Of a stretch of 64,000 nucleotides of DNA, positions 50,575 through 64,000 are shown in pieces. Below the pieces are notes generated by a model. It did no database searches and was not told the origin of the DNA. It saw only the letters and a program-made list of their open reading frames with translations. The stretch is taken from positions 1 through 64,000 of the IMG/VR virus record IMGVR_UViG_3300032287_004273; one strand, 5' to 3'. Position numbers and translations under genes: made by a program. Positions within the stretch are counted from its first letter, which is position 1, and every line of letters begins with the position of its first letter. Source of the DNA: a virus.

Positions 50575-50610
50575 TTGACATTTAAATTCCACCCCTATAT
50601 ATTTGCTCAC

Positions 50611-51534
50611 ATGTTTGACAACCTCATTGGACAATCCGAAATCAAAGATCAACTAGGCTTCTACTCGAAAGCCTTCCAAAAGACTGGCACTGTACCATTT
50701 ATACTTCTGAATGGTGCTAAAGGTCTGGGCAAGACTGAGTTCCTCAAGGCGTTCAGCAAGACCATCACCAATAGTGATGGCAAGCCGCGCCCTATGCTGG
50801 AACTCAACTCCAGCACCATCAAGAACAATCAAATGTTCTTTGAGCAGATCTTTATGCCCATCGTGCAGGGAAACGAAGTAACTCTTTTCTTCGATGAGTG
50901 TCATGCACTCCCTAACGATCTGGTGATGGCATTCCTGTCCATCCTCAATACAGAACGTACACCTTACAAGGAGTTCAACTGGAGAGAGTATACCTTTACT
51001 TTTGATTTCACTAAGATCTCCATGATCTTTGCAACTACCGAGTTAGATAAACTATTTCCTCCTCTTAAGGATCGGCTGACTGTTCTTGATTTCAAACCAT
51101 ATAATCAAAATGAGTTAGCCGCAATCATCAAGGGTCGCTTGCCAGATGTAGAGTTTGAAGATGGATTGGTTGAGGAGATTGCCACCACCACCAGAGGTAA
51201 TGCACGTGATGCTGTAAAGCGTGCAAAGCAAATCGAATTGTACTGCGAGACCAACAATTCTAATTTGTTTCTTAAGGATGAGTGGAATGATCTTCGTAAA
51301 GTGCTTGGCATCAAACCTTTGGGGTTATCTAATACAGAGGTGCAAGTGCTTGAGATTCTTAACGCTAGAGGGCCATCCACCTTACAAACTATCGCAGCAG
51401 TGACTGGCATGAGTCGTACTGCAATCCAGAAGGATGCTGAACTGTATCTCCTACAGCGTGGACTCATGAAGATCAATGGTGTTCGCGAGCTTACCAGATT
51501 AGGTGCAGACCTAATCAAACAAATGTCAGAGTAG
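50611..51534 (+). CDS. ruvB: RuvB-like Holliday-junction branch-migration AAA+ ATPase
   Basis: LIGQ, GAKGLGKT, LFFDECHAL, FATT..PLKDR, RGNAR, LGL, E.YL...GL...R; ATG 7 nt after TTGACA-N17-TATATT. Confidence 0.75.
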   Translation: MFDNLIGQSEIKDQLGFYSKAFQKTGTVPFILLNGAKGLGKTEFLKAFSKTITNSDGKPRPMLELNSSTIKNNQMFFEQIFMPIVQGNEVTLFFDECHALPNDLVMAFLSILNTERTPYKEFNWREYTFTFDFTKISMIFATTELDKLFPPLKDRLTVLDFKPYNQNELAAIIKGRLPDVEFEDGLVEEIATTTRGNARDAVKRAKQIELYCETNNSNLFLKDEWNDLRKVLGIKPLGLSNTEVQVLEILNARGPSTLQTIAAVTGMSRTAIQKDAELYLLQRGLMKINGVRELTRLGADLIKQMSE

Positions 51535-51549
51535 AGAGTAGTCAAACAG

Positions 51550-51581
51550 CCCCCCTTCGAGTGAAGGGGGGTAACTCTTTT
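51550..51581 (+). terminator. Probable terminator hairpin
   Basis: CCCCCCTTC-GAGT-GAAGGGGGG after ruvB-like stop; weak T tail. Confidence 0.6.
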
Positions 51582-51845
51582 ATGGCCAAACCTCAATATA
51601 TCTTTAGACACTTCAGCATAAGGAAGTCAAGAACTATTTTGTTTCATTGCTTGTATAATCCGAAGACATTAAGAATCACAGCTATGAGTGCATTCAACTT
51701 TGACAGTGGAGTGGGGGAAGAATGCGACTACAGCAAGTTCACCGACGAAGAGTTGAACTACACGCTCGCGTGGTTAGAACTCATGCTCGAAACAAAGCTA
51801 TGGGAAGAGCAAGATGAGTTAGAGAAGGGTAAGGAAGAAGAATAG
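51582..51845 (+). CDS. Hypothetical protein
   Basis: Last plus-strand ORF before the strand switch. Confidence 0.5.
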   Translation: MAKPQYIFRHFSIRKSRTILFHCLYNPKTLRITAMSAFNFDSGVGEECDYSKFTDEELNYTLAWLELMLETKLWEEQDELEKGKEEE

Positions 51846-52028
51846 TCAAGAGTAAAAATTAACAAAAATTATTTCAAATAAGACGAAATAAGTAGGCAAA
51901 AACTGCCAGGGGGAGCCCTGGTCACAAAAGACTACACCCCACCCTTTCGGGTGAGGTGTTTTTTATTGGGGGGAAATTTATTTACTTTTTATTTTTGGTT
52001 GCGAGTGCGAAGACAACTAGTAGAACAA

Positions 52029-52616
52029 TTAAGATTTGCATTTGCTGGGGGCATATGGTTCTCCTGTTTCTAGGTTGATGAGGACAACGTCGTCGATGTG
52101 ACCTCCGTCTTTTACGTTCTTAGCATAGACATCGATCATAAGACTTGGTGTTATATGTCTTGCGTATACATAGATCTTGCCACTCGCAACGTTTCTGATT
52201 GCCCACTTGGCACCTTTTGGTACGCAGAGCCACTTGCTACTGCTATAGCATCTCTCTACTGGTATTCCCAGCTTCCTCATCCAAGACTTCCAAGTAGGCC
52301 CATGTCCCCAACCCTTGTTGACTTCCCAATCTAAAGCGTGTGCCCATTCGTGTAGAATAGTTTCTTTTGCTTTTTGTAAGAAGTTCGGGCTGTTCTTGTT
52401 TATGTGTATTATGTGGGTGGAAAGCTCGATTCGTTTTGTCTTTCCATTATTAGATCTCCAAGCCCTGCCCATTACAGTCCTCAGTCTTTTGTTCCATTTG
52501 ATTTCCCACCCTTCTAGGATGGGATACTGGAGCTTGATCTGAGCAGAGATTTCTTTGAACAATGTATTTACTTCGGCAATCATATTAGTCATCGTCTCTA
52601 AATTATTCTTCGTCAA
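52029..52616 (-). CDS. SprT-like zinc metalloprotease
   Basis: WNKRLR..MG, ETILHEWAHA, GHGPTWK. Confidence 0.85.
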   Translation of the reverse strand: MTKNNLETMTNMIAEVNTLFKEISAQIKLQYPILEGWEIKWNKRLRTVMGRAWRSNNGKTKRIELSTHIIHINKNSPNFLQKAKETILHEWAHALDWEVNKGWGHGPTWKSWMRKLGIPVERCYSSSKWLCVPKGAKWAIRNVASGKIYVYARHITPSLMIDVYAKNVKDGGHIDDVVLINLETGEPYAPSKCKS

Positions 52617-52809
52617 ATTCTTTTTCTCCTAGTGGTTCAGAGTCAATCGAAAAGAAAACTTCGTCTTTGTAAAGATAGTCTCCCTCACCACTAGCAATGT
52701 GAATGCCAGTTACATTGTGAAAGTTATCATATACTTCCACGATTACATGGGAGTCAAGTTGATCGGCAGTCATGCGACCTAAGTCTTTTATTAGTTGTCT
52801 GTATGTCAT
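52603..52809 (-). CDS. Hypothetical protein
   Basis: MTYRQLI..L..MT..QLD. Confidence 0.6.
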   Translation of the reverse strand: MTYRQLIKDLGRMTADQLDSHVIVEVYDNFHNVTGIHIASGEGDYLYKDEVFFSIDSEPLGEKEFDEE

Positions 52810-52828
52810 ATTTTTTAGCAATTTAAAG

Positions 52829-52905
52829 TGGCGTACCCAGCAGGGTTCGAACCTGCGACCAACGGATTAGAAATCCGTTGCTCTATCCAACTGAGCTATG
52901 GGTAC
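52829..52905 (-). tRNA. tRNA-Arg(TCT)
   Basis: GTACCCA/TGGGTAC acceptor; ACGGA-TTTCTAA-TCCGT; CCA. Confidence 0.93.
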
Positions 52906-53253
52906 TTAAAGACAAGGGTGGAAAGCAAGATCTACATCCTTGCGGTGATATTCTTCAGATAGAATGCGCTTTGTCAAGACAATTTCCACCTTGCCAAATG
53001 GATAAACATATATCTCACCATAAGTGCCAGCGCCCATATCGAAATCTGGATAATGCTCCTGTAACAAATGTTCAATTTCATCTTGATAGATTGGAGCAAC
53101 TTCTTTACTGGAAACGAGTTTGTCCCCAAGCGCAAAGTACACGCAGGAATCAAACCAATGAGTACAGGAATCCTCAGAAGTCCAGTGATAGATTGCGTAC
53201 TTTAGATCACGACTCTTTAGAACCTCAACAAGATCAAGCAATGTCTTTTCCAT
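52906..53253 (-). CDS. Hypothetical protein
   Basis: ATG after TTGCCT-N16-TATGAT. Confidence 0.65.
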   Translation of the reverse strand: MEKTLLDLVEVLKSRDLKYAIYHWTSEDSCTHWFDSCVYFALGDKLVSSKEVAPIYQDEIEHLLQEHYPDFDMGAGTYGEIYVYPFGKVEIVLTKRILSEEYHRKDVDLAFHPCL

Positions 53254-53382
53254 ATGCGTCACATCATAAACAATCTTAGCGAGAAGGCAACATTTATTTC
53301 AAAAATATTTACGCACTTGTGCGTAATAACACTTGACAGGGAGCCAGGGCTACCCCTGGGGCGTAACCACCTCATTCTGAGG

Positions 53383-53468
53383 TGGTAGCTAGGGCGGGAC
53401 TCGAACCCGCACGCCCTACTGGGCAACAGATTTTAAGTCTGTTGTGTCTGCCATTTCACCACCTAGCC
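53383..53468 (-). tRNA. tRNA-Leu(TAA)
   Basis: ACAGA-CTTAAAA-TCTGT; long variable arm; GGTTCGAGTCC; CCA. Confidence 0.93.
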
Positions 53469-53483
53469 GAAAGAAAAAGAAAG

Positions 53484-53556
53484 TGGGGACGGAGGGATTT
53501 GAACCCCCAACCAAGCGATTATGAGTCGCCTGCTCTGACCATTGAGCTACATCCCC
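53484..53556 (-). tRNA. tRNA(CAT), probably Ile2 (lysidine-type)
   Basis: GGGGATG/CGTCCCC acceptor; arm GGCGA-CTCATAA-TCGCT is like bacterial tRNA-Ile2. Confidence 0.85.
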
Positions 53557-53562
53557 GAAAGC

Positions 53563-53949
53563 TTACAATTCAAAAGCGAGAATGTTATCTGATGGAAGAA
53601 AGTTCAACTCTGCCTCACCTTCATATAAGGAATATCCTAGCACAGTCAAAGCAAAGACGCAAGCATTATCGTAAGAAAAATCTCGAAAGGAATGGATCTC
53701 TACACCATCATCTTTGTCCACAATGTAGTAGTCTTTAATCTCATCAGATAAAGATTTAGGTTCTACACGAAAGCCCAAATGTGTAAGGGCTTGTTCTTCA
53801 GGTGTTTGCGGTGATTCTTTATCAATCATTACTTGTTCCTGAAAGGAAGTGTCATCTTCGATTAGTGTATACGGTTGGTGCATATTTATTTCTTTAACAT
53901 TAAGCATATTACGACGAGGGTTACGATTAGAGCATCCATAATTAGACAT
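53563..53949 (-). CDS. Hypothetical protein
   Basis: ORF coupled to the upstream gp88-like gene; start uncertain. Confidence 0.6.
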   Translation of the reverse strand: MSNYGCSNRNPRRNMLNVKEINMHQPYTLIEDDTSFQEQVMIDKESPQTPEEQALTHLGFRVEPKSLSDEIKDYYIVDKDDGVEIHSFRDFSYDNACVFALTVLGYSLYEGEAELNFLPSDNILAFEL

Positions 53950-54637
53950 GAATTACAAAGCCCGAATTATCTTTTTTTGCTGGCCCCTTGGCACGCAGTC
54001 CCACGATTGTATTCTTTGGATCAAGGAAGCGAAGATCGTTTTCATCTCCGTCAATGACTTTGAAACCTTCGTGTTCTGTTGGCAAGGGTTGATCTTTTTT
54101 AGTGGAGAAAACAAAGGCTGAATTGTTTCCTTTTGCTAAAGCTGCGAAAGCTTTAACTTGAGACACTTTAGTCTCTGCGCGTGAGAAAGTCAAGTGGTAA
54201 TTTGAAATTGTCAAGTCCAAACGATCAAACAATTTTGTGTAATCATAGAACTGCACACCAGAAAAATGCTGGAAAATGTTTTTGCCCTTGTGGATAATGT
54301 CTTCCCATCTGACATCGGAAGTTAAGTTGAGACGAAACACAGCTTGCAAACTTTTCTTTGCGGCTGATTTGATTCCTGTCTCAATTTCTTTGATTAAATT
54401 ATCCATGAACAAAGCTTGTTCCTCAAAGAAGCTTTTTGTTTTTTCGATTCGCTGTGGCTGAACCATGACACCCATGCCAGCCAAGTTAAGGCATGAATCT
54501 GTGCAACCTTTAGATCTGCCTTGGCAAACTTCATAACCGCTAATGTTAGCGGGTGCAAAGTGAATGCCAAAGGTTTCGTATCCGAAGGATCTGCCCTTGA
54601 GCGTTTTGTAATTAGCAACGGTGAGTAATTTTTGCAT
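53942..54637 (-). CDS. Phage Gp88-like protein
   Basis: C...C..SCL..AG, FRLN.TSD..WE, FYDYTK, NYHLTFS, DGD..DLRF.D, GL.AKG. Confidence 0.75.
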   Translation of the reverse strand: MQKLLTVANYKTLKGRSFGYETFGIHFAPANISGYEVCQGRSKGCTDSCLNLAGMGVMVQPQRIEKTKSFFEEQALFMDNLIKEIETGIKSAAKKSLQAVFRLNLTSDVRWEDIIHKGKNIFQHFSGVQFYDYTKLFDRLDLTISNYHLTFSRAETKVSQVKAFAALAKGNNSAFVFSTKKDQPLPTEHEGFKVIDGDENDLRFLDPKNTIVGLRAKGPAKKDNSGFVIHV

Positions 54638-54919
54638 GGGTGAAGAATATCATGAGCAAGGGGTGGTGCAACAATTATTTCGCAAAATATTTACGCCTTT
54701 AGGCGTAATAGTTCTTGACATCCCAGCCAGGGCTACCCCTGGCCCCCACCCGATGGGTGGGGGTCAGCTTCCCGATAGCGTTGGTTGTCAGTTAAACAAA
54801 CCAAAAAAAGCAAACCAACAATCTATTTGGAAGAGAAAGTAACTGGCCCCCACCCCACTGGGTGGGGGTCAGCTTCCCGATAGTTTAGCTCGCTGAGATC
54901 CCCTCAGAAAACGCGAGCA

Positions 54920-55207
54920 TCATCTATTTGGAAGAATGGAATTGTCCAAGATTCTGTCAAGGTAGAACATTCCGAAGTGTGGTTGCTCCACCTTACCGTT
55001 CTTTGCTACTATGTAGAGAGTGACAGCTTCAGGTGGGCAATGGTTAGTTCCACCTTTTGATCCTTTCTTTACGCCAGTACGAACAGTGTAGGTGTTTGTT
55101 TCACCTTTCTTGTTATGGTACTTGATCGAAAAGAACTTTCCGTTTGTTGTTGCGATAATGCGTTTGCCGATCATATGTGGTGCTGGTTCGAGTGTGTTAT
55201 TATTCAT
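54920..55207 (-). CDS. Hypothetical phage protein
   Basis: GKFFSI...K.G.....RTGVKK..KGG. Confidence 0.65.
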   Translation of the reverse strand: MNNNTLEPAPHMIGKRIIATTNGKFFSIKYHNKKGETNTYTVRTGVKKGSKGGTNHCPPEAVTLYIVAKNGKVEQPHFGMFYLDRILDNSILPNR

Positions 55208-55211
55208 ATAA

Positions 55212-55490
55212 TTATCGTGAAAGATCAACTTGATTGCCATCCTCATCTTCGTCGTCGAAGTCTTCGTCCTCGTCGTCCCAAACAACATCTGGTTCTGTGG
55301 TGTTCATTGCAATGGTAGCGAGCAGATGATCGTAGTCTCCGCTTTGCGCTTCTTTTAGAACCGCACGAACTTCTTCTTGTGACCAACCTTGGCGAAGCGC
55401 GTTGCTTCTCCATGTACCCATAATTGCAAATGCGTTGCCGTCGAGGCCGACCAGTTCCATCTTAACTTTCTTGGTTTTTGTGTTTTGCAT
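55212..55490 (-). CDS. Hypothetical phage protein with acidic tail
   Basis: LVGLDGNAFAIMG...SGDYDHLL; DDEDEDFDDEDED. Confidence 0.7.
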   Translation of the reverse strand: MQNTKTKKVKMELVGLDGNAFAIMGTWRSNALRQGWSQEEVRAVLKEAQSGDYDHLLATIAMNTTEPDVVWDDEDEDFDDEDEDGNQVDLSR

Positions 55491-55580
55491 ATCGCTTGTA
55501 TTGTTTTTTGCTTGGTTGTACGACTCGCAACATTCTGTTGCCCCATCGTAAAGTTTTTTGATAGGTTACCCCATCGACAA

Positions 55581-55823
55581 TCAGTTTTTGCTTTTTGGAG
55601 TCCATACTCTCAACATATCCTCATCCTTCATGATGTCAATCCCAAATCCCAATGTTTGGAAAGTTTTCTGCAAAGTGTATGCTTGCAACTCAAGAATCTT
55701 TTTCATCTCGTTTGATGTCATAGCTTCACCGACAGCTTCCTGCGTAGCCCTGTGGAATGCGTAAAGCATTTCACAAAACTGATTTACCAATGGGGTCAAC
55801 TCTTTGATGGCGTCTTTGTTCAT
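55581..55823 (-). CDS. Hypothetical protein
   Basis: Leaderless: TTGCGC-N16-TATGAT-N6-ATG. Confidence 0.7.
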   Translation of the reverse strand: MNKDAIKELTPLVNQFCEMLYAFHRATQEAVGEAMTSNEMKKILELQAYTLQKTFQTLGFGIDIMKDEDMLRVWTPKSKN

Positions 55824-55964
55824 GTGGGTATCATATACAGAGCAACCGAATGCGCAACATTTATTTCAAAAATATTTACGTCCTTGGACGTAATAGTTAT
55901 TGACAGCCCAGCCAGGGGTGGCCCTGGACCCCCGCCTTTCGGCGGGAGACCATTCGTATGGAAA

Positions 55965-56270
55965 TTAATGTGCGACTACTTCTGCTTCGTCGATTTCTAT
56001 GCAGAACTCTCCGCCGCCAAGGGAGAATTCAAACTTATTGCCTGTAAGGGAAACTTCTTGAGGAAGCCTGCGATCTGTTTTATGGTTAAGCAGAACGCTG
56101 TGATCCATCCCATCTTTCCACCTTTCGAGGTGAACATTGGTGGGAACGAAGTGAGTGATGTTATGCCAGAGGATCAATCTTTCTTTCTTTTTGATTGCTC
56201 TCTTGACTCGCTCAACGTGAGCGTGTTTGACTTTGATCGTGATGTTGGTGTTTCCAATGTTTGTTTGCAT
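55965..56270 (-). CDS. Hypothetical protein
   Basis: Leaderless: TTGCAC-N16-TATGCT-N6-ATG. Confidence 0.7.
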   Translation of the reverse strand: MQTNIGNTNITIKVKHAHVERVKRAIKKKERLILWHNITHFVPTNVHLERWKDGMDHSVLLNHKTDRRLPQEVSLTGNKFEFSLGGGEFCIEIDEAEVVAH

Positions 56271-56432
56271 GTGAGAAGCATAGCAAAAGCTCTCATGCGT
56301 GCAACAATTTTAATTAAAAAAAATTACGCACCTGTGCGCAATAGTTGTTGACAGAAAAGCCAGGGGTAGCCCTGGCCCCCCGCATAGCGGGGGGTGGGTT
56401 GGGAGCGGTGTTACCCGCTCCCCCCGAAGGGC

Positions 56433-57203
56433 TTACGCTTCAGCGCCTGCAAGCTCTTCAACGTCAATCAGTTGGGGCTCAATGATTGATGCGTGACCCG
56501 CAATCGAATCGAAGATTGATTGCATGACCATCGTGCGAGCGGGGAGCTTGGTCAGGTCGGAGCCTTTCAGGTTCTCCGTCACAGAGTTGTACAGGTTCCA
56601 CAAGGTGGGCGTGTTGAACTCAGGGTGACGGGGAGCCTTGAACTCTTGCGTGACGGCGAACACATCGCGAGCGGGAAGCGCCTTAGCTTCAGCGAGTTGA
56701 ACTGAAAGCTCGCACGCACGATCAAAACCGATTTCGGTGTTCTGATACCGATTGATTCGGGTTTCCATATCCGTCCAATGCGAGAGAAGGCGACCGATGC
56801 CCTCAGACAAAACGCGAGGAATGTCGCGAATGATGTTGACGGTGTGACGGCGAGCCAGCTTCACATCGCTGGAAAAGCACAGGTTCTCGCATACGATCAT
56901 GCGGTTGCCAATGCACATACTAGCAGCGAATGACTTGTCGTGCGCGTTACGCAATCCCAAGACGAGCTTGCGCGAATCGCTATTGATATCGGGGCCAGTG
57001 ATCTGGAACCCGCCGAAGTACCGTTGACCGAAACGGCCCAGAGCGTGCTTTTCTTCGGTGACGCTGTAGCCTGCGCGATCCAAAGCGGAAAGCGTTTCTT
57101 CCACAAGGAAGGAATGGCTGATTGGGGTGAAGCTGTCCGTGCCATCTGGGGTACGGACGGTTGCGAGTTCTTCACGGGAGACGAGGTTCTTTGCAATGAT
57201 CAT
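56433..57203 (-). CDS. DUF932-family protein
   Basis: P.SH, RYFG, GLRNAHDKS, VCENL.F, RRHT, TLWNLYN.VTE..K. Confidence 0.75.
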   Translation of the reverse strand: MIIAKNLVSREELATVRTPDGTDSFTPISHSFLVEETLSALDRAGYSVTEEKHALGRFGQRYFGGFQITGPDINSDSRKLVLGLRNAHDKSFAASMCIGNRMIVCENLCFSSDVKLARRHTVNIIRDIPRVLSEGIGRLLSHWTDMETRINRYQNTEIGFDRACELSVQLAEAKALPARDVFAVTQEFKAPRHPEFNTPTLWNLYNSVTENLKGSDLTKLPARTMVMQSIFDSIAGHASIIEPQLIDVEELAGAEA

Positions 57204-57424
57204 ATGTTTGATTAGGTTTAATGGTTAACTGACAGAAGAGAGTCTCTCACAGCTTGGGTTTTAGTGCAACGGATTTTTTTGATTTTGAGCATTTATTTTC
57301 ACCTCAGAAACCATGCCAAGCGCAAATATTTTTGCGCTTGAGCGTAATAGTCTTGACAGCCCCAGGCCAGGGGTAGCCCTGGACCCCGCCTTTCGGCGGG
57401 GTCAAGTGCCTGTGCGTGCCGCAC

Positions 57425-57643
57425 TTACGCCAGATGCGCGATCTTAGCCTCCACAAGGCGAAGGCGCTCGCGTGCTTCGCGCACATGCGCGAGAGCGAAG
57501 TCGGCCACGCCGTTAAGGAGTTCTATGTCGGCCTCTGTGGTGAGACGAGCGACGTTGATGTCGCGGACGCACTCGCGTAACACGCGAAGGCTCGCGGTCA
57601 TGAGTGCTGCGGAGGAGGCGGGTTGTGGTGTGTTTAGTGTCAT
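57425..57643 (-). CDS. Hypothetical protein, paralogue family A
   Basis: RECVRDIN..LT...LL..A.FA...EAR shared with 62042..62296. Confidence 0.65.
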   Translation of the reverse strand: MTLNTPQPASSAALMTASLRVLRECVRDINVARLTTEADIELLNGVADFALAHVREARERLRLVEAKIAHLA

Positions 57644-57644
57644 A

Positions 57645-57848
57645 TTAGGTGTAGCAGACAGGGTGGATATCATCCCTTAGTCCATTCCATTTTCTGTTCA
57701 TCATAATGGAATGGGTGTGCATAACTCTTTTGAGCCTTTGCTTGGATTCTGTCTTGACTTTCTTCAACTTGGAAAGTTCCATTTGCAGATAGGTAATCTC
57801 ATCAATGCTGAGACTTTTTGCGGCTTCAATGATTTGTTTTTTATTCAT
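57645..57848 (-). CDS. Hypothetical protein
   Basis: Packed minus-strand ORF. Confidence 0.55.
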   Translation of the reverse strand: MNKKQIIEAAKSLSIDEITYLQMELSKLKKVKTESKQRLKRVMHTHSIMMNRKWNGLRDDIHPVCYT

Positions 57849-57954
57849 ATTAATTTAATGCTTTGATAATGCTTGCGCTGGAGCCCCCTCTGCGAGAAGG
57901 AGAAACGCAGAGGGAGCTTGCGCATAGCGCAACAGGGGAAACAACAACCCTGTC

Positions 57955-58290
57955 CTACCGAAAGACTCTTGTCAAATGATTATTGACACCGTTCTTGAAA
58001 AACTCATAGTCAACGCAGTCAACCGCATCCAACTTGTACCCACCGATATTCCATTCAAACAAAACGTCTGGGCTGGATGGTACGCGCTTCCATGCGTAGA
58101 TGGTGGCGACTGTATCATTGGGGAATCTTAAGCGCCATTCGATGTTAACTTTTTCGCTTTCATCGATTGGATTATTATGCTTGTCAGGCGCACCGAATAC
58201 AGCAACCAATTGGTCGTATGTGCATGAGATGTAACCTTTGAGCGAGGTTCCGTTGATGAGTGGCGTTCTTCTAACTGCTGTAGTTGTCAT
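57955..58290 (-). CDS. Hypothetical phage protein
   Basis: GTSLKGYI..YD.LV..FG.P, KV..EW, WNIGG; leaderless promoter. Confidence 0.7.
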   Translation of the reverse strand: MTTTAVRRTPLINGTSLKGYISCTYDQLVAVFGAPDKHNNPIDESEKVNIEWRLRFPNDTVATIYAWKRVPSSPDVLFEWNIGGYKLDAVDCVDYEFFKNGVNNHLTRVFR

Positions 58291-58398
58291 GGATAGAAAG
58301 ATAGCACAGGAAAGAGTGCGTGCAACTTATTTTTCAAAAATAATTACGCCCTTGGGCGTAATAGTGCTTGACAGATCCCCAGGGCTACCCCTGGGCGT

Positions 58399-58473
58399 TG
58401 GTGGACAGGATGAGACTCGAACTCATAACCAACGCCTTAAAAGGGCGCTGCTCTACCATTGAGCTACCTGTCC
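58399..58473 (-). tRNA. tRNA-Lys(TTT)
   Basis: GGACAGG/CCTGTCC acceptor; GCGCC-CTTTTAA-GGCGT; CCA. Confidence 0.93.
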
Positions 58474-58541
58474 CTTTGTGCCAGAGCCTCCCCCGCACTC
58501 GCGGGGGAGGATGGATGACACAACACACCTAACCACAGAAA

Positions 58542-58847
58542 TTATCTTGCTGCTTCAAAGCAGTGAGCCGCATGGAGTTCCAGATGTTTGCGGATGTCTT
58601 TAATTTTTTGCTTGACCTCATCTCTTTGAGAGACTGCCATGTTCCAACTCTCATCGCCCTTTGGGTAGTAGTCTCGCTTGTGAAACTCAACCGCAAAAAA
58701 CTTTTCAGAGAATTGTTCTAGCGCACGAAGCGCATCGAAGTACTGTCCACCTAGTGATTTGCCATCGTTGCCATTCATGTGGATGAATGGAAAACAAACA
58801 GAAGGATTATCAAGCTGGACTTGTGATTGTGCTGTTTCGGAGATCAT
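58542..58847 (-). CDS. Hypothetical protein
   Basis: IHMNG...FH.RDYY motif. Confidence 0.65.
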   Translation of the reverse strand: MISETAQSQVQLDNPSVCFPFIHMNGNDGKSLGGQYFDALRALEQFSEKFFAVEFHKRDYYPKGDESWNMAVSQRDEVKQKIKDIRKHLELHAAHCFEAAR

Positions 58848-58999
58848 TGTTGCAAGTATGTTTGGATTTTTTCTTTTAGTTCAATGAGGAAGTTTTCTTC
58901 CACGTTCAATTCGTATGAGAGCTTATCTCTTAAGTCTGCATCCGTCAAGCAATGTTTGCAGATTTCGAGGGCTTTGGTGATGTCTTCTGGTGTGAGCAT
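58844..58999 (-). CDS. Small hypothetical protein (51 aa)
   Basis: Not in ORF track; fills the gap with an ATGA overlap. Confidence 0.5.
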   Translation of the reverse strand: MLTPEDITKALEICKHCLTDADLRDKLSYELNVEENFLIELKEKIQTYLQQ

Positions 59000-59003
59000 G
59001 ATA

Positions 59004-59330
59004 TTAGTCCCAACGTTGTTCAATAAAATCTTTGACCCTCATTTCCTGTAAGACAAGAAATTTAAATTTTTGTTTTAGTTTTGAAGTGAGTTCAATTAGA
59101 CCATCAGCATATATCTTCGCATCACACTTGTCAAGTTTAAAACGAAGATCATGACCGTCTTGACGAGAAAACAAAGAAAACGTATCTCGTATTGTTTCAA
59201 CATTATCATCGTAATGATAGACTTCTGATCCAAATTCGCTTTGAAGTACGAATGCCCAAGATTCACAAAGGATGTCTAACAGGTCTGATGGACTGATTGG
59301 TTTTGATTCTGCTTTCAATGGGTTGTTCAT
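59004..59330 (-). CDS. Hypothetical protein
   Basis: Leaderless: TTGCGC-N16-TAGAGT-N7-ATG. Confidence 0.7.
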   Translation of the reverse strand: MNNPLKAESKPISPSDLLDILCESWAFVLQSEFGSEVYHYDDNVETIRDTFSLFSRQDGHDLRFKLDKCDAKIYADGLIELTSKLKQKFKFLVLQEMRVKDFIEQRWD

Positions 59331-59466
59331 GTTTAGAACTCTATCATGGGTTTTGATTCGCGCAACATTTATTTATCAAAAAATTACGCACTTAGTGCGT
59401 AATAGTTCTTGACAGTCGAGCCAGGGGTAGCCCTGGCCCCAACCCTTTCAGGTTGAGGCGGTTATA

Positions 59467-59700
59467 CTACTCGACCTCCTCTTCTTCCTCTTCTTCCTCT
59501 TCGTCGAGCCCACCGAAGAGCGAGTCCCACTCTTCGGCGGTAATGCCCGACTTAATGAACTCCCGCTCGTCGGGAGTTAAGTTAGGGAACGCATCTTGCA
59601 GCAGAGCGCCTGCTGCATAGAGGTCGAGCTGCGTTTGCGTGATGGGAAGATCAAGCGTGTTGACTTCCCCCGATACCCACGATGTGCGTGTGATGTTCAT
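59467..59700 (-). CDS. Hypothetical phage protein with poly-Glu tail
   Basis: LLQDAFPNL..DEREFIKSGIT.EEW. Confidence 0.7.
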   Translation of the reverse strand: MNITRTSWVSGEVNTLDLPITQTQLDLYAAGALLQDAFPNLTPDEREFIKSGITAEEWDSLFGGLDEEEEEEEEEVE

Positions 59701-59707
59701 GTTTTTA

Positions 59708-59890
59708 TTATTTGTTGCTGATTTGACGGACAGAAGAAACTGGTGGCCATTCGGGCGATTCGCCGTTAAGAAGGGCGATTTGATATTCGCGCTCTTCGAT
59801 CATGCACTCGATTGCGGTTTGCAACTGGCGCAAAGAGTCGAGGTCGCTGAAGTTTTGCTTAATCAATTCGATCAATGGGTTCGTTCTCAT
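59708..59890 (-). CDS. Hypothetical protein, paralogue family B
   Basis: DSL...AIECMIEE shared with 61101..61343. Confidence 0.65.
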   Translation of the reverse strand: MRTNPLIELIKQNFSDLDSLRQLQTAIECMIEEREYQIALLNGESPEWPPVSSVRQISNK

Positions 59891-60031
59891 GGAAGAATCA
59901 TCTCACAATTCTGCTTTTGCACAACAAAAAAAGAGCAAAAAAATTTACGCTGCAAGCGTAATAGTTGTTGACAGCCAGCCCAGGGGTAGCCCTGGCCCCC
60001 AACCCATTCGGGTTGAGGGCTTTAGCTCTGT

Positions 60032-60292
60032 CTACTTGGCCAAGTCAAAGAATGGGCCACTGAACTGGATTTGCCGTTCGTGCGCAAGTGCTTGCGCCCG
60101 TTCACGTTCCTCCTGATCAGCCACCTGCTGATTGAGGATATGCGCCTCTTGCAACATTGCGCTGCACTCATGCGCAAGCATGAAAAGCAATGTGTGTTGC
60201 TCGCAAGTGAGCGCGAGTGGGTCGAGCCCCGCAATCATTTTGCGGGACTCGATGAGGACTGCGTTTTGCATAAGTTGAAGTGCGTCTTGCAT
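60032..60292 (-). CDS. Hypothetical protein, paralogue family A
   Basis: ATG at 60292; AVLI..R and RERAQALAHERQ shared with 62042..62296. Confidence 0.65.
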   Translation of the reverse strand: MQDALQLMQNAVLIESRKMIAGLDPLALTCEQHTLLFMLAHECSAMLQEAHILNQQVADQEERERAQALAHERQIQFSGPFFDLAK

Positions 60293-60300
60293 AGGATGTA

Positions 60301-60513
60301 TTATTCGCGTTCTTGGAGTTGTTTGATTCTGCCTGCAATATGTTCTTTGGCCTCTGGCACAAAAGTTGCCATACCTATCAAAAAACCTTCGAGGTGGCCA
60401 ACGATGCACGCATCGACAAGTTTCTCGCCATGCCTTTTCGCGATGTCCGCCTTGGTAGCGGCCATGAAGGTTTGCATAATCTGAACTGCGTCTGTGTAGT
60501 TGTTTCTTTCCAT
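60301..60513 (-). CDS. Hypothetical protein
   Basis: Leaderless: TGC-TATTGT-N6-ATG at 60513. Confidence 0.65.
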   Translation of the reverse strand: MERNNYTDAVQIMQTFMAATKADIAKRHGEKLVDACIVGHLEGFLIGMATFVPEAKEHIAGRIKQLQERE

Positions 60514-60676
60514 GCCCAAACAATAGCATAAAAAGAAAGGGCTACAATACTCTTTTTTCATGCCAAGCGTGAAAAAAAGTTCATAAAAATTTTCACTTAA
60601 TAGCGTAATAGTTCTTGACACCCAGCCCAGGGGTAGCCCTGGCTCCCAACCCTTTCGGGTTGAGGGGTTTACGGGT

Positions 60677-60934
60677 TTAGTTGTATGCCTTGAGCGGCCC
60701 TTGGCCCTCGCACTCAATGCGATGGCGCTCAGTCAAGCGCTCAACCGTTTCAATCGTGTGCCGCAAAGAGGCTTGGAACTTTGGGTCGCCTTCAAAATCA
60801 AACTGCAAGTCGCGCAATGCGTGCTCAAGCATCATGGCCTGAATCGTGGTGCGCGTCGAGAGCTTGTTGCGTGGGTTCACGCTAGAGTATGCGTGAATTT
60901 TGCTGATCAGATCAGAGACTTTGATGTTTTCCAT
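60677..60934 (-). CDS. Hypothetical protein
   Basis: Leaderless: TTGCGC-N16-TATTGT-N6-ATG. Confidence 0.65.
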   Translation of the reverse strand: MENIKVSDLISKIHAYSSVNPRNKLSTRTTIQAMMLEHALRDLQFDFEGDPKFQASLRHTIETVERLTERHRIECEGQGPLKAYN

Positions 60935-61100
60935 GCTCAGACAATAGCAGAAAACAAAATGTGCGCAACACTCTTTTTTCATGCCAAACTTCAAAAAAAG
61001 TTTACAAAAATTTTCACCCTATTTCATAATAGTTCTTGACGCCCAGTCCAGGGGTAGCCCTGGACCCCAACCCTTTCGGGTTGAGGTGTTTGCGCTTATG

Positions 61101-61343
61101 CTATTCTTCCATCATGCACTCGATGGCCGCTTTAATCTTTGCTAGTGAATCTGGGTCATTATATCCTTGACGGATTTGCTGAATGATTCCTTCGCATGAT
61201 TGCGTATTCTCGACGAACGTGCATAACTCCTTGAAGTCTGGGTCGCTTGGAAGCGACAGCGCCCAATTCAGACTCTGCTGAATTGCGCGAAGCGCGTTTA
61301 GATCCCTGTCTTCGTAAGTGTCGGTGGTAGGATAGTCGTACAT
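61101..61343 (-). CDS. Hypothetical protein, paralogue family B
   Basis: Ends DSLAKIKAAIECMMEE. Confidence 0.65.
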   Translation of the reverse strand: MYDYPTTDTYEDRDLNALRAIQQSLNWALSLPSDPDFKELCTFVENTQSCEGIIQQIRQGYNDPDSLAKIKAAIECMMEE

Positions 61344-61476
61344 AACTGAGAGAATCATATACAAGAAAGTGTGCGGTTCAACATAAAAATTTTGCTTTTG
61401 ATGCTTAATAGTTCTTGACAGCGAGTCCAGGGGTAGCCCTGGCGGCTTGTCAAGTATTTTCTTTTGTTTTTCTCAC

Positions 61477-61504
61477 AAAAAAAGCCGCCCGAAGGCGGCT
61501 TTTT
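61477..61504. terminator. Bidirectional terminator
   Basis: A-tract, GCCGCC-CGAA-GGCGGC, T-tract; identical hairpin at 62006-62021. Confidence 0.8.
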
Positions 61505-61519
61505 GTGCTTGACGCGATT

Positions 61520-61837
61520 TTAGAAATCGCCCCCTTCGCACTCGTTCATCGACTCCCAATGGGAGTCGAGGAAACTGTCCTCCCCACCGCCGTAGTCCTC
61601 ATCCGTCCCCCACCCAGCGGACGCGAGCGCATCCGCATCCGCCTCGCCATCCGTCATGCCGTCCCCTTCGTCTTCGCCCAGATCCTGCGTGCAATCGTCC
61701 CCCTCCGCCTCGATCTGCTCCGAAGGATCGTAGTACTCCCCAATCGAGGGGCAGCACCCGCAGCAAGGCGCGTCCTCGCAGGGGAACTGCGCGTGCGTGT
61801 TTTCGTCGTCTGAACCTGAATTAGATGATGTAACCAT
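61520..61837 (-). CDS. Extremely acidic Cys-cluster protein
   Basis: 105 aa, about 31 D/E, no K/R; CEDAPCCGCC and ALASAGWGTDEDYG motifs. Confidence 0.7.
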   Translation of the reverse strand: MVTSSNSGSDDENTHAQFPCEDAPCCGCCPSIGEYYDPSEQIEAEGDDCTQDLGEDEGDGMTDGEADADALASAGWGTDEDYGGGEDSFLDSHWESMNECEGGDF

Positions 61838-61996
61838 GCGCCAAACATAACACATAAAAGCAAAAGGTCAAAAACTATTTGCGTGCCAAGCCTGAATTTA
61901 AATTCATAAAAATTTCTCACAAATAGCATAATAGTTGTTGACGCCCGACCCAGGGGTAGCCCTGGATCTTGTCAAGAGTTTTTTTTATTTTAGTGC

Positions 61997-62025
61997 AAAA
62001 AAAAAGCCGCCCGAAGGCGGCTTTT
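61997..62025. terminator. Bidirectional terminator (second copy)
   Basis: A-tract, GCCGCC-CGAA-GGCGGC, T-tract. Confidence 0.8.
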
Positions 62026-62041
62026 ATGGCGGCTTTTATGC

Positions 62042-62296
62042 TTAGAGCGCCATTTGCCTTTCGTGCGCGAACGCTTGCGCCCATTCGCGAGCGTCCTCCT
62101 CCGCTTCCCCGAATTCGACGGAGGCGACATCCGCCTCCTGCGCGAAACGCGCCTCCTGCGCGTTCGCGCAGGCAAAGGACGCGATTTGATGGAGGAGCGC
62201 GATGTGCTCCTCCGTCAGGGATGCGCAATTGAGGTCGCGCACGCAGGCGCGAACGTGAATGAGAACCGCTGTGAGATTGGACGATGTATTAACCAT
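62042..62296 (-). CDS. Hypothetical protein, paralogue family A
   Basis: ATG at 62296, 6 nt after TACTGT. Confidence 0.65.
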   Translation of the reverse strand: MVNTSSNLTAVLIHVRACVRDLNCASLTEEHIALLHQIASFACANAQEARFAQEADVASVEFGEAEEDAREWAQAFAHERQMAL

Positions 62297-62427
62297 GCGG
62301 ATACAGTACAAAAAGAATGCTGCGATTGGAAGGATTATTTGCAAAAAATTTCTCACTCTATGCACAATAGTTGTTGACAGGGTGGCCAGGGGTAGCCCTG
62401 GGGGCTGTCAAGCTTTTTTTGCTTTTT

Positions 62428-62637
62428 TTATGCTTGCACAACTTGCATGTTCTGTGGGCGCATTGAGTACTCCTTAGAGTACTCCTCATTCGTGAGTATC
62501 AGCGCGAAGCTGATATCGAAGCGACCACTTGCAAACAACTCAGCGCGAACGCTTTTTGCTTCGTCGCGAGTCTCGCAACGGATAGTTTCATGCCCGAAGT
62601 TTCCCGCCTTGTTTAAGCTAACGTATAATGTGAACAT
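62428..62637 (-). CDS. Hypothetical protein
   Basis: Leaderless: TTGCAA-N17-TATAAT-N6-ATG. Confidence 0.7.
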   Translation of the reverse strand: MFTLYVSLNKAGNFGHETIRCETRDEAKSVRAELFASGRFDISFALILTNEEYSKEYSMRPQNMQVVQA

Positions 62638-62904
62638 GCGATGATTATAGGGTAACAAATGTGCGATTGCAAAAACTATTTTCGTGCCAAGTGTATTTTT
62701 AATTCTTAAAAAATTTCCTACAAATAGCTCAATAGTGCTTGACAGGGTGGCCAGGGGTCCCCCTGGAGTTTTTTGCCTAGTGAGTTTTTGCCGCCTCCTA
62801 GAGGTAGGCACTTCTTGCCTAGCGCCAGGGATCATGCACTTTCTGCATCATGCACTGGTCGCATGGCCATGCATGGGCCGCATCCCATGCATGGCGTGCA
62901 TGGC

Positions 62905-63012
62905 CTACTTCTTGCTCGTGAAGTATTCTGCGCATTCTGCAACCAGCGCAACGATGGTTATGAATGTCATGGGGAATAGGACTAATGCAGATGCTGCAAT
63001 GATGTCTTTCAT
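62905..63012 (-). CDS. Small membrane peptide (35 aa)
   Basis: MKDIIAASALVLFPMTFITIVALVAECAEYFTSKK; not in ORF track. Confidence 0.4.
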   Translation of the reverse strand: MKDIIAASALVLFPMTFITIVALVAECAEYFTSKK

Positions 63013-63015
63013 GGG

Positions 63016-63041
63016 GTGTGTGTGTGTGTGTGTGTGTGTGT
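63016..63041. repeat. (GT)13 microsatellite
   Basis: Directly visible. Confidence 0.95.
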
Positions 63042-63077
63042 AGGTTGGGGGGCTCGCGCCCCCCTTGTGATTCTTGC

Positions 63078-63329
63078 TTAGGCGTTTGCGTATTCTCTAA
63101 CTAACTTAAGACCATTCACTTCCAACGTGCGGATTTTGGCCGCACTAGTGAAGCTGCGCGTGCCCTTGGCCGTTGAGAGGATGTATTGCGTACCAGCACC
63201 GCACGCCTTGGACTCAACTAAGGTGCCTTCGAGCGTCTTGAATTGTCCGTTATCGTTTACGCGATCGTTTGACGATGCGTGGTAGGTGACTTTGATGTTC
63301 GATCCGTTTGCGATTGTCAGGTTTGCCAT
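63078..63329 (-). CDS. Hypothetical protein
   Basis: ATG at 63329 after a repeated promoter block. Confidence 0.65.
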   Translation of the reverse strand: MANLTIANGSNIKVTYHASSNDRVNDNGQFKTLEGTLVESKACGAGTQYILSTAKGTRSFTSAAKIRTLEVNGLKLVREYANA

Positions 63330-63382
63330 ATGTGAGAAGTATAGGGAATTGAGGTTGAGAAACAAGATTTATTTGTGTTTTT

Positions 63383-63595
63383 TTAGTCTTTTTTCAAGGA
63401 GTTGATCGTGTTTTCGACGTATCGCTTGACATCATTATCCCAATTGATCATCAACCCTAGCACTGAAGTTAAAAAGGCTTCGGTTGAGACTTGGATCAAT
63501 GCTTCGTCGCCATTCACGCGCTTGCACACGCTTTGTTTGTATGTTGCGACAAGGGTTTCGGCGATTTGCTGTGAGGCTTCGTAAGTTGTAATCAT
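63383..63595 (-). CDS. Hypothetical protein
   Basis: Leaderless: TATACT-N6-ATG. Confidence 0.65.
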   Translation of the reverse strand: MITTYEASQQIAETLVATYKQSVCKRVNGDEALIQVSTEAFLTSVLGLMINWDNDVKRYVENTINSLKKD

Positions 63596-63765
63596 GTGAG
63601 AAGTATAGGGAGTTGAGAGAGGGAAACAAGGTTTATTTGTGTTTTTATTTCACTTTTTTCTGCAAGCGCAAAGCACTAGGAGAGAGAGAGTTAGGATGCT
63701 CATCTGCAAGTAGGTGAATGAGAGAAGGTTAAAGAGGAGGGATCGAACCTCCTCAGGTTGAGCGC

Positions 63766-63981
63766 TTAGTGAATGTAATCATGAGCGGCTTCGCCGCATT
63801 CGTCTGAGGGAATACTTTCAAGCTCCTCAGGTGTGAGCGCAACGTATTCATCACCAACCTTTTTCAAGGCTTTAATGATGAAAGCATCACAAAAGTCTGG
63901 GTAGTCACACATATCAATTCCATCCATCTCAATGTCGAAGCATTCGACTGCTTCGCCGTTAACCGTTAATTTCATATCCAT
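63766..63981 (-). CDS. Acidic hypothetical phage protein
   Basis: IEMDGID..DYPDFCDAFI motif. Confidence 0.7.
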   Translation of the reverse strand: MDMKLTVNGEAVECFDIEMDGIDMCDYPDFCDAFIIKALKKVGDEYVALTPEELESIPSDECGEAAHDYIH

Positions 63982-64000
63982 GTGAGAAGACTAAGCGAAG

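Follow-up and report, generated by a model that had tools for sequence, protein, structure and literature searches.

Fifteen exact copies of the palindrome CCAGGG-N4-CCCTGG punctuate an 11-kb block of 14 minus-strand units and about 25 small genes in the window, the whole 64,000-nt stretch of viral DNA analysed here. Comparison with related sequences leads us to favour, with a probability of roughly 0.55, a reading in which each unit boundary is a module similar to the PeSL elements of T4-type phages, the palindromic core would be a regulator or insulator site in double-stranded DNA, and the units would be shuffled by ordinary recombination. The array is carried by a large uncultured freshwater siphovirus-like phage, from which the nearest cultured phage is distant (terminase identity 28% at best). 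The source record is 79,358 bp long and about 55% complete. Judged from its sequence, the block is an early-gene region holding host-takeover or accessory genes, and a literature search found no description of a palindrome-tagged early-gene array with this architecture.

A motif search located all 15 exact matches within 51906-62766 (Table 1), against none in 100 dinucleotide-preserving shuffles, with neighbouring copies separated by 365-1438 bp, and thus reproduced the number, positions and spacing of the elements reported in a preliminary description. Neither further copies elsewhere in the whole 79,358-bp record nor near-copies (at most one arm mismatch, spacers of 0-8) were found. Each interval holds between one and three genes on the minus strand, in some cases accompanied by tRNAs, and the two ends of the array form imperfect 29-bp inverted repeats matching at 25 of 29 positions.

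Table 1. Features of the palindrome-tagged array, with positions counted from the first base of the window.
Feature	Position	Strand	Remarks
Palindrome copy 1	51906-51921		Left array end; no promoter after it; followed by a T run on the minus strand; palindrome fused to TAGGCA half-site 51893-51905; scored terminator-like on the minus strand
Palindrome copy 2	53344-53359		Loop flipped; after tRNA-Met/tRNA-Leu and a small hairpin
Palindrome copy 3	54727-54742		Loop flipped
Palindrome copy 4	55912-55927
Palindrome copy 5	56360-56375
Palindrome copy 6	57367-57382		Left-hand unit (DUF932 gene) with atypical promoter and leader
Palindrome copy 7	58379-58394		Loop flipped; 4 nt past tRNA-Lys
Palindrome copy 8	59421-59436
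Palindrome copy 9	59980-59995
Palindrome copy 10	60627-60642		In relative G004, recombined with copy 11 within the 16 bp
Palindrome copy 11	61048-61063		Unit to the right, 61064-61426, deleted in one lake strain
Palindrome copy 12	61427-61442		Inverted TTGACA/TGTCAA on both sides; after canonical terminator
Palindrome copy 13	61950-61965		Inverted TTGACA/TGTCAA on both sides; after canonical terminator
Palindrome copy 14	62386-62401		Inverted TTGACA/TGTCAA on both sides
Palindrome copy 15	62751-62766		Right array end, inverted copy of left end; followed by a T run on the + strand; palindrome fused to TGCCTA half-site 62767-62779
Promoter-like, unit 1	53253-53290	-	-35 53285-53290, -10 53263-53268, ATG 53253
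Promoter-like, unit 2 (GP88-family gene)	54637-54671	-	16-nt spacer; -10, 6 nt, ATG 54637
Promoter-like -35/-10 and ATG, unit 3	55823-55857	-
Promoter-like -35/-10 and ATG, unit 4	56270-56304	-
Promoter-like -35/-10 and ATG, unit 6	58290-58325	-
Promoter-like -35/-10 and ATG, unit 7	59330-59365	-
Promoter-like -35/-10 and ATG, unit 8	59890-59924	-
Promoter-like -35/-10 and ATG, unit 9	60513-60547	-	Long-spacing class; -35 79 nt from element
Promoter-like -35/-10 and ATG, unit 10	60934-60968	-	Long-spacing class
Promoter-like -35/-10 and ATG, unit 11	61343-61381	-
Promoter-like -35/-10 and ATG, unit 12	61837-61871	-	Long-spacing class
Promoter-like -35/-10 and ATG, unit 13	62296-62331	-
Promoter-like -35/-10 and ATG, unit 14	62637-62672	-	17-nt spacer, consensus -10
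Hairpin 3, example	53309-53326	-	Covarying stem-loop then T run, between palindrome and promoter
Hairpin 3, equivalents	54691-54708, 55876-55893, 56324-56341, 58344-58361, 59384-59402, 59945-59961
GC hairpin with GNRA-type loop, example	59437-59458	-	Closes preceding unit, abuts palindrome
Further GC hairpins	54743-54775, 55929-55961, 56376-56394, 57383-57415, 59996-60019, 60645-60664, 61064-61087
GC hairpin near copy 1	51938-51955		16 nt away
Canonical intrinsic terminator	61477-61499	-	GC stem, UUCG loop, T run; upstream of copy 12
Second canonical intrinsic terminator	62002-62025		Upstream of copy 13
tRNA-Arg(TCT)	52829-52905	-	Within unit 1
tRNA-Leu(TAA) and tRNA-Met(CAT)	53383-53556	-	End of unit 2
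tRNA-Lys(TTT)	58399-58473	-	Between unit 7 terminator hairpin and palindrome

Read in the direction of the genes, the boundary module opens with whatever closes the preceding unit, be it a canonical terminator, a tRNA or a GC hairpin whose loop is of GNRA type, and continues with the palindrome, a gap of 6-8 nt and TGTCAAG, followed in about half of the copies by a covarying stem-loop with a T run (hairpin 3), and then by an A/T-rich stretch and a host-type -35, 16-nt spacer and -10, with the ATG 6-7 nt further on. The GC hairpin (-12 to -22 kcal/mol) abuts the element or lies within 3 nt of it in eight copies, and a similar one stands 16 nt from a ninth (51906); the others are preceded by canonical terminators (three copies) or by tRNA or other RNA genes (three copies). 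TTGAC(A/G) adjoins 14 of the 15 copies, with a gap of 6 nt between TTGACA and the element in 11, and no -10 box follows it on the + strand. Promoter-like signals (-35, 16-17 nt, -10) were recognised in 13 of the 14 units, and since the predicted -10 is placed just 6-10 nt ahead of the first ATG, the mRNAs of the array are probably leaderless. The earlier account of self-contained minus-strand units, usually with a GC hairpin against the element and with TTGAC(A/G) mostly 6 nt from it, is upheld.

The same arrays are present in six related lake-phage contigs, bringing the totals over seven records to 79 exact palindromes, three one-base variants and one loop-less copy. Information content reaches 2.0 bits at all 12 arm positions and stays below 1 bit in the flanks. 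By comparison, hairpin 3 occurs in 39 copies with 22 different inner sequences and its pairing kept, while the upstream GC hairpins have many different stems. The invariance of the arms beside covarying hairpins points to a constraint on the sequence of the palindrome and not on structure only. Two further observations argue for action at the DNA level. The loop of the palindrome is variable and occurs either way round with respect to the promoter, whereas the GNRA loops of the GC hairpins are kept in transcript orientation only. Copies 12 and 13 and their equivalents in relatives are perfect although a strong canonical terminator precedes them and the next promoter comes after them, so that their DNA should rarely be transcribed. 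Position 4 of the loop is C in 88% of copies, so that the site is not fully symmetric. At the equivalent boundaries of more distant relatives, whose RuvB-like neighbour gene shows 57% and 41% identity, the palindrome is a different one, being either TCGTTGA-N3-TCAACGA or a G-run/C-run palindrome with TTGAC...GTCAA around it, and some palindromes of related lineages match the IHF consensus. A search of the genomes of 185,579 species for the composite site returned 45 single, chance-like matches; on this count it is not a bacterial chromosomal motif.

It is possible, though in our view unlikely, that the palindrome acts instead as RNA, as a 3' untranslated hairpin of each unit stacked on the GC hairpin. 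There it would contribute to a terminator of several hairpins, block 3' exonucleases or be processed with the help of a sequence-specific RNA-binding protein. Eight of the 15 copies directly adjoin a GNRA hairpin in transcript orientation; hairpin 3 with its T run could be the true terminator, in which case the palindrome may be transcribed; both end copies have T runs of their own and score as terminators. A conserved 83-aa neighbour gene gives a weak match to a bL19/SH3-like, RNA-binding-type fold. Against this, not one compensatory change is seen in 79 copies, yet both neighbouring hairpins covary, the loop belongs to no stable tetraloop type and flips its orientation, copies behind strong canonical terminators are just as perfect, and the T run is missing from internal copies.

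The preliminary description had proposed a dedicated gene-shuffling system, and the cassette behaviour on which this proposal was built is borne out by the relatives: whole units are gained, lost and reordered between them and within lake populations, and gene order differs in relatives G003, G002 and G006. Several joints fall exactly at the edge of the element. Copies 10 and 11 have crossed over within the 16 bp in G004 despite a longer (21 nt) identical stretch alongside, and a loop-less copy sits at a junction at which one unit is missing from G004. Among lake-population contigs, the deletion of unit 61064-61426 has a 19-nt joint ambiguity that spans the element, and one lake strain lacks precisely the tRNA-Lys, with the deletion right at the element. 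Such joints, the inverted end copies that bracket the array and the HNH endonuclease and ERCC4-like nuclease genes of the record would suit a phage analogue of integrons in which cassettes are mobilised at the palindrome by an enzyme outside the tyrosine and serine recombinase families, such as a nickase, an enzyme that cuts hairpins or a novel type of recombinase. We nevertheless consider this quite improbable. Joints at repeat edges are also expected from homologous recombination between repeats, and of the 98 synteny break ends no more than 20 are found 25 nt or less from an element (8.5 expected), while about 80% of the breaks are away from elements, mostly at gene boundaries inside units. 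The search extended beyond the window to five related records, of which the most complete reaches 87%, yielded no integrase, resolvase or other tyrosine or serine recombinase, no Y1 transposase and no ParB, the last result counting against the parS-like array also put forward earlier. Every unit also brings a promoter and a terminator of its own, and the differing, sometimes IHF-consensus-like palindromes of related lineages suit protein docking better than catalysis.

An equally doubtful, if anything slightly less credible, view is that the palindrome is functionless and conserved through module duplication and homogenisation by gene conversion. The modules do form a few spacing classes resembling descent groups, and PeSL stem-loops likewise have lineage-specific consensus sequences (PMC4122927). 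Gene conversion would homogenise the flanks too, but the bases touching the palindrome differ where the 12 arm bases do not, and the arms are identical although orthologous genes across the compared genomes share only 40-85% protein identity.

Each copy contains two CCWGG sites, and the array could for that reason serve to cluster the targets of a methylase or to divert a host CCWGG enzyme as a decoy. CCWGG is the fourth most under-represented 5-mer outside the elements (22 seen, 44 expected; 4 against 13 within the array) and CCGG is wholly absent from the 79 kb (35 expected), which places the phage under restriction-avoidance selection. The earlier decoy proposal finds little support, and the tie to restriction-modification is the least plausible reading of all: the conserved unit of 12 bases exceeds CCWGG and is fixed in position relative to terminators and promoters, palindromes lacking CCWGG occupy this position in relatives, the scanned proteins included no recognised methyltransferase family, and 30 kept target sites would be a liability.

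Among known systems, the PeSL (promoter-early stem-loop) cassettes of T4-type myoviruses combine a terminator stem-loop with an early promoter, recur across a variable genome region populated by small genes, and bound insertions, deletions and swaps between close relatives that have been attributed to homologous recombination (Arbiol et al. 2010, PMC2839356; Comeau et al. 2014, PMC4122927). The array likewise repeats a composite of stem-loop and host-type early promoter many times among small non-essential genes, with a lineage-specific stem-loop sequence and repeat-bounded differences between relatives, and by analogy it is a PeSL-type terminator-promoter cassette in architecture. The dismissal of PeSL in the preliminary description thus fails for architecture and stands for the sequence, for the phage group (siphovirus-like here), and for the invariant, non-covarying 16-bp palindrome added separately from the terminator hairpins; predicted leaderless starts are a further difference. 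Stoperators, known from L5 and other cluster A mycobacteriophages, are asymmetric 13-bp, orientation-dependent sites bound by a monomeric immunity repressor; at least 20 copies are spread over the short intergenic spaces of a gene block, the site changes from one phage lineage to another along with its binding protein, and it acts on transcription between genes (PMC9283540, PMC6550527). The array, with its putative protein-binding sites, would resemble them in this arrangement. It differs in being palindromic, in that no repressor homologue was found, and in showing no sign of lysogeny (no integrase).

In the IncP plasmid RK2, KorB, a ParB-family protein, exerts global co-regulation through its OB operators, about a dozen copies of one palindrome at variable and often long distances upstream of promoters. 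A multi-copy palindromic site upstream of many promoters is common to both, but RK2 is a plasmid and no ParB-family protein was found in the five phage records. The host-takeover module of Bacillus phage SPO1 comprises early genes of very small size, about 10 kb in all, with a strong host-type promoter and a terminator per operon and with strong ribosome-binding sites; we know of no shared palindrome at its unit boundaries. The array shares the size of this early block and the promoter and terminator of each operon, and differs in its predicted leaderless starts. With integron attC arrays it shares one-directional small-gene units, a repeated palindromic site and gain and loss at that site. 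An integron-like array is not supported, given that no recombinase was found in the five records, and given the promoter and terminator of each unit, the location of most breaks and a perfect 6+4+6 palindrome unlike the imperfect attC of 57-141 bp.

Some features do not fit easily with the reading we favour, a PeSL-like boundary module with a protein-binding core. A classical repressor would be expected to sit closer to the start than the palindrome centre does, at about 97 nt upstream, the two end copies resemble plain intrinsic terminators, and the symmetry of the site is incomplete. Distances to the -35 box span 41-84 nt, fall into two main classes of 53-56 and 77-79 nt and show no helical periodicity, which makes a regulator touching RNA polymerase in a fixed geometry unlikely. 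HTH_3, HU/IHF and ParB families, searched as candidate binders, were not found in the five records (49-87% complete). As double-stranded DNA, the palindrome would be recognised by a sequence-specific protein that is probably a dimer and is probably encoded by the phage. Exchange of units may proceed by ordinary homologous or illegitimate recombination with no dedicated recombinase, the conserved palindrome within the repeated module being one preferred crossover point. The bound protein would act on all early units of the phage together, through joint shut-off or joint activation, or may alternatively serve as a roadblock or insulator between them.

A pattern search of the window recovered exactly the 15 start positions listed in the preliminary description for the palindrome CCAGGG-N4-CCCTGG, which never occurred in 100 dinucleotide-preserving shuffles. 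Likewise, the spacing of 365-1438 bp between copies and the transcription of the units from the minus strand were found as described, as was the word TTGAC(A/G), which adjoins 14 copies (in 11 of them the hexamer TTGACA stands 6 nt off) and has no -10 box on the plus strand. The whole source record (79,358 bp, CheckV completeness about 55%) contains neither another copy nor, with one arm mismatch allowed, a degenerate one. Scanning IMG/VR with three loop variants revealed the same arrays on six further contigs; together with the window's record, these carry 79 exact palindromes, plus three with one arm mismatch and one without the 4-nt loop. In an alignment of 77 copies centred on the palindrome, every one of the 12 arm positions reached 2.0 bits and the flanks stayed below about 1 bit. 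The loop follows the pattern S-N-N-S, belongs to no stable tetraloop class and may face either way with respect to the promoter (27 versus 5 for the commonest pair). Lake and freshwater metagenomes from 14 studies contain parts of the stretch, and our literature search on the palindrome returned no relevant paper.

The record is that of a long-tailed phage; among its products are minor tail proteins and a lambda-J-like central tail fibre. No close cultured relative was found: blastn DNA similarity is limited to tRNAs, and the best isolate match of the terminase is 28% identical. To the left of the array lies a plus-strand block ending in genes for an AT-hook protein and a RuvB-like AAA+ protein with a winged helix; to the right, a plus-strand block opens with PhoH, a sigma-like protein, an ERCC4-like nuclease and the large terminase. 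The array, placed between a replication-type and a packaging module, is thus the sole leftward block. It packs 14 units into 11 kb, in which the only recognisable genes are SprT-like, GP88-family and DUF932 genes, the remainder being orphans. The G+C content of this early array is 44.5%, against 31.5% for positions 1-50000 and 33.9% from 64001 to the end of the record. The array tRNAs serve AGA, UUA and AAA codons; conceivably the early genes are adapted to the codon pool of the host, with the later genes leaning on phage tRNAs. Two sigma-70-family-like proteins are encoded, one with a weak region 2 match and the other with regions 2 and 4, which suggests that later genes are probably read by phage sigma factors.

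Read along the minus strand, each boundary module leads from the end of the preceding unit to the palindrome, then through 6-8 nt to the word TGTCAAG, a covarying stem-loop followed by a T run where present (hairpin 3), an A/T-rich stretch, the -35 and -10 boxes and the ATG. At 8 of the 15 copies the preceding unit ends in a GC hairpin (-12 to -22 kcal/mol, loop mostly of the GAAA type) directly at the palindrome or no more than 3 nt from it; a similar GC hairpin stands 16 nt from copy 1. Two copies are preceded by a canonical terminator (UUCG loop and T run) and one further copy by a T-rich tract, in each case about 10-35 nt upstream, and at three copies a tRNA or other structured RNA forms the end of the preceding unit. 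Hairpin 3 with its T run belongs to the seven left-hand units; this combination scores as terminator-like in 8 copies and lies 20-30 nt before the -35 box.

Promoter-like sites numbered 29, against 14.8 in shuffles. In the boundary module, a -35 box of the TTGCnC type is followed after 16 nt by a -10 box of the form TAnnnT. Only 6-7 nt (9-10 nt in two units) separate the -10 box from the ATG of the first gene, and because of this proximity the unit mRNAs are predicted to be leaderless; elsewhere in the record a Shine-Dalgarno-like word precedes only 13 of 79 genes. Two spacings between palindrome and -35 box prevail, 53-56 nt and 77-79 nt; across all relatives the distance ranges from 41 to 84 nt, and no helical periodicity was detected. 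Such variable distances fit a boundary, a roadblock or long-range silencing better than an activator of fixed geometry. Metatranscriptome contigs (run X17) cover intragenic pieces only, leave some bins uncovered and are uninformative on transcript ends; promoters, terminators and all functional statements made here are predictions from sequence and comparison.

Several other readings of the promoter region were rejected. A plus-strand promoter built on the conserved TTGACA would need a -10 box at 16-18 nt, and none is present. The word TTGGCAYG sits upstream of the long-spacing promoters, and its reading as a sigma-54 element fails in this lineage on a wrong GG-to-GC spacing. An ECF-type promoter (AAC and CGTAA across hairpin 3) was discarded because only half of the copies have the motif and its spacing is not fixed (14-16 nt). 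Between copy 3 and the gene at 54920 lie two tandem structured non-coding units of about 100 nt (a GC hairpin and a shared tail), only one of which is found in G004, the closest relative.

Gain, loss and reordering of units, for which the preliminary description had suggested looking, are seen on comparison with related lake-phage contigs (G002, G003, G004, G006) and contigs from other lakes, several of the joints lying at the element. G004, about 90% identical, lacks the unit between copies 10 and 11; its sequence agrees with that of copy 10 as far as the last base preceding the element and with that of copy 11 starting at the first base beyond it, which places the crossover within the 16 bp, even though a 21-nt identical stretch adjoins the site. 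G004 also lacks the unit to the right of copy 12, with a break 1 nt from the element, and the DUF932 unit, at whose junction a loop-less palindrome is found. In G004, and in G001, another related contig, the gene of the last unit lies outside the array, on its right. The order of units differs in G003, where the tRNA-Lys unit stands beside the SprT unit, and in G002 and G006, where the DUF932 unit precedes the GP88 unit. In the other-lake contigs, the unit to the right of copy 11 is deleted with a 19-nt joint ambiguity that spans the element, a tRNA-Lys deletion ends exactly at the element edge, and one gene is deleted between a neighbouring gene and a terminator hairpin. A weak backward joint from 61965 to 61065 (copies 13 to 11), found in one run at low depth, may reflect a reorder, a duplication or a circle, excised mini-circles being a trait of PeSL cassettes. 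Among 98 alignment ends inside the arrays of nine genome pairs, which are not independent of one another, 20 fall within 25 nt of an element against 8.5 expected (2.4-fold), and most synteny breaks lie at gene boundaries within units. Logan contigs ending inside elements were set aside as evidence, such ends being expected at any repeat. Unit genes also include paralogues with 36-52% identity, which indicates that units multiply inside the array as well.

This organisation is best described as PeSL-like, in a new phage group and with an additional invariant palindromic core. As in the PeSLs of T4-type phages, a predicted stem-loop terminator lies directly upstream of a predicted sigma-70-like early promoter, the copies are clustered in a variable region whose small genes are mostly unknown, and indels or replacements between close relatives are bounded by the repeats; unlike the T4-type myoviruses that carry PeSLs, the present phage has a lambda-J-like tail fibre and a terminase no more than 28% identical to that of any isolate. 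We found no description of this architecture in the literature beyond those PeSLs. Swaps of PeSLs in T4-type phages have been attributed to homologous recombination between terminator-promoter repeats (PMC4122927), and by analogy the units would be exchanged here by homologous recombination between boundary repeats.

The palindrome itself points to a putative double-stranded DNA site recognised by a protein. The flanking hairpins vary in sequence while their pairing is kept: hairpin 3 shows 22 different inner sequences in 39 copies, counted per copy because stem lengths differ and RNAalifold on a MAFFT alignment under-counts the covariation, and the upstream GC hairpins use many different stems, with GNRA-type loops kept in the transcript orientation only. 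Set against these RNA-like hairpins, the constant palindrome appears to be read as sequence: its arms show no covariation and its variable loop can be flipped. Copies 12 and 13, like their equivalents in G003, G002 and G006, are perfect although a strong terminator comes before them and the next promoter only after them. Sister lineages moreover carry replacement palindromes. Where the RuvB-like gene shares 57% identity, the contigs have TCGTTGA-N3-TCAACGA at the same boundaries, in 6-8 copies that frequently form pairs about a GC core. L048, a 41% relative, shows a G-run/C-run palindrome eight times, with TTGAC...GTCAA on its flanks. The TCGTTGA palindrome of the 57% relatives matches the E. 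coli IHF consensus WATCAA-N4-TTR; at TGTCAAG in the present lineage an IHF site was rejected, as GTCAA is followed by TTR after 6 nt instead of 4. In L048, TTGGCAC stands beside each G-run palindrome with a GG-to-GC spacing that fits sigma-54 promoters.

The main alternative, which we consider unlikely, is that the palindrome works as RNA, in which case it would sit at transcript 3' ends as a hairpin stacked on the GC one. T runs are present at the two end copies, which score as terminators, but these alone pass the intrinsic-terminator test of hairpin and U run (51906 on the minus strand, 62751 on the plus strand), the T run being absent at all 13 internal copies. Each end palindrome is fused to a TAGGCA half-site and an A/T run within imperfect 29-bp inverted repeats that bracket the array; the same fusion is seen in G004 and G001 and is missing in G003 and G002.

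A link between the element and CCWGG gains a little from the composition of the record. Outside the elements only three 5-mers are more depleted than CCWGG (22 seen, 44 expected), and CCGG is absent from all 79,358 bp where a Markov model expects about 35, a pattern that looks like restriction-site avoidance. This idea nevertheless leaves unexplained both the constancy of 12 bases and the other palindromes of the relatives.

A dedicated integron-type shuffling system, as the preliminary description had suggested, is unlikely. Joints at repeat edges arise from recombination between repeats anyway. Integrons have an IntI tyrosine recombinase beside the array, an attC site that is an imperfect palindrome of 57-141 bp with extrahelical bases, and promoterless cassettes served by one common promoter, whereas the element here is 16 bp long with perfect 6-bp arms and every unit is equipped with a promoter-like site and a terminator. 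Neither tyrosine (PF00589) nor serine recombinases were detected in five related records, one of them 87% complete, while control genomes were positive; the Y1 transposase (PF01797) on which REP/RAYT elements depend was also absent from the five records.

It is improbable that the invariant, lineage-specific palindromes are docking sites of a new class of phage factor that both insulates or co-regulates early genes and directs cassette exchange at its own site in many uncultured phage lineages; if true, this would amount to a palindrome-targeted system of gene swapping and control without a known recombinase. The stoperators of cluster A mycobacteriophages are asymmetric 13-bp sites oriented with transcription, while the present arms are palindromic and the loop takes both orientations. 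Stoperators are served by a phage-encoded immunity repressor; of possible binder families, HTH_3 was absent from five records. ParB-parS and KorB-OB systems rely on a ParB-family protein, and PF02195 was absent from five records that are 49-87% complete. Finally, a host chromosomal motif was rejected, as a scan of bacterial genome contigs gave 45 single matches, which lie in unrelated and mostly GC-rich DNA, are without the module flanks and are read as chance.

Since the composite site is not a bacterial chromosomal motif, the protein reading the palindrome would probably be phage-encoded. No candidate binder of the HTH_3, HU/IHF or ParB families was found in five related records. The best-conserved neighbouring gene, the first of three small minus-strand genes to the right of the array, was rejected as a lineage-restricted orphan whose product is not a convincing DNA binder (model pLDDT 76; weak bL19/SH3-like match, E 3e-3). 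These three genes use a different repeated promoter module without the palindrome and could belong to a temporal class of their own. The divergent region right of the array contains a (GT)12 microsatellite and, after it, a G6/C6 hairpin. The RuvB-like and AT-hook proteins were set aside as well, being a better fit to a second palindrome, TAGGCA-N5-TGCCTA, whose sites are confined to the closest sub-lineage (the window, G004 and G001; absent from G002, G006 and more distant relatives). The non-coding DNA that precedes the AT-hook and RuvB-like genes contains four of its copies at intervals of about 70 bp, which may be an origin or an array of operators; one more copy is found at 49187 and another just right of the main array.

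Coordinates of features in the window and in related sequences
Feature	Location	Remark
CCAGGG-N4-CCCTGG, copies 1-15	51906-62766	
Imperfect inverted repeats	51893-51921, 62751-62779	25/29 identical
G+C step	50001-64000	44.5% in the array
Tandem structured non-coding units	54743-54935	
Paralogous unit genes, first set	57425-57643, 60032-60283, 62042-62296	
Paralogous unit genes, second set	59708-59890, 61101-61343	
TAGGCA-N5-TGCCTA	49187-50049, 62805-62821	
(GT)12 microsatellite	63019-63042	
Small minus-strand genes	63078-63329, 63383-63595, 63766-63981	
Promoter module without palindrome	63330-63380, 63596-63650, 63982-64000	
Sigma-70-family-like ORFs	L022:5965-6666; one ORF within 17397-48838	L022, with the window, makes up the whole record
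TTGGCAC beside G-run palindromes	L048:5617-15011	

Early phage genes are the seat of host-takeover and anti-defence functions and turn over quickly. Our comparison shows how this turnover is organised in a widespread lake phage, as self-sufficient units joined by a repeated module. The predicted terminator, insulator and promoter of this module make it a compact natural part for leaderless expression, and the 16-mer could be used as bait for the predicted binding factor. From the invariance of the palindrome and its exchange for others in sister lineages, a co-evolving DNA-binding factor is predicted, which would control the whole early regulon.
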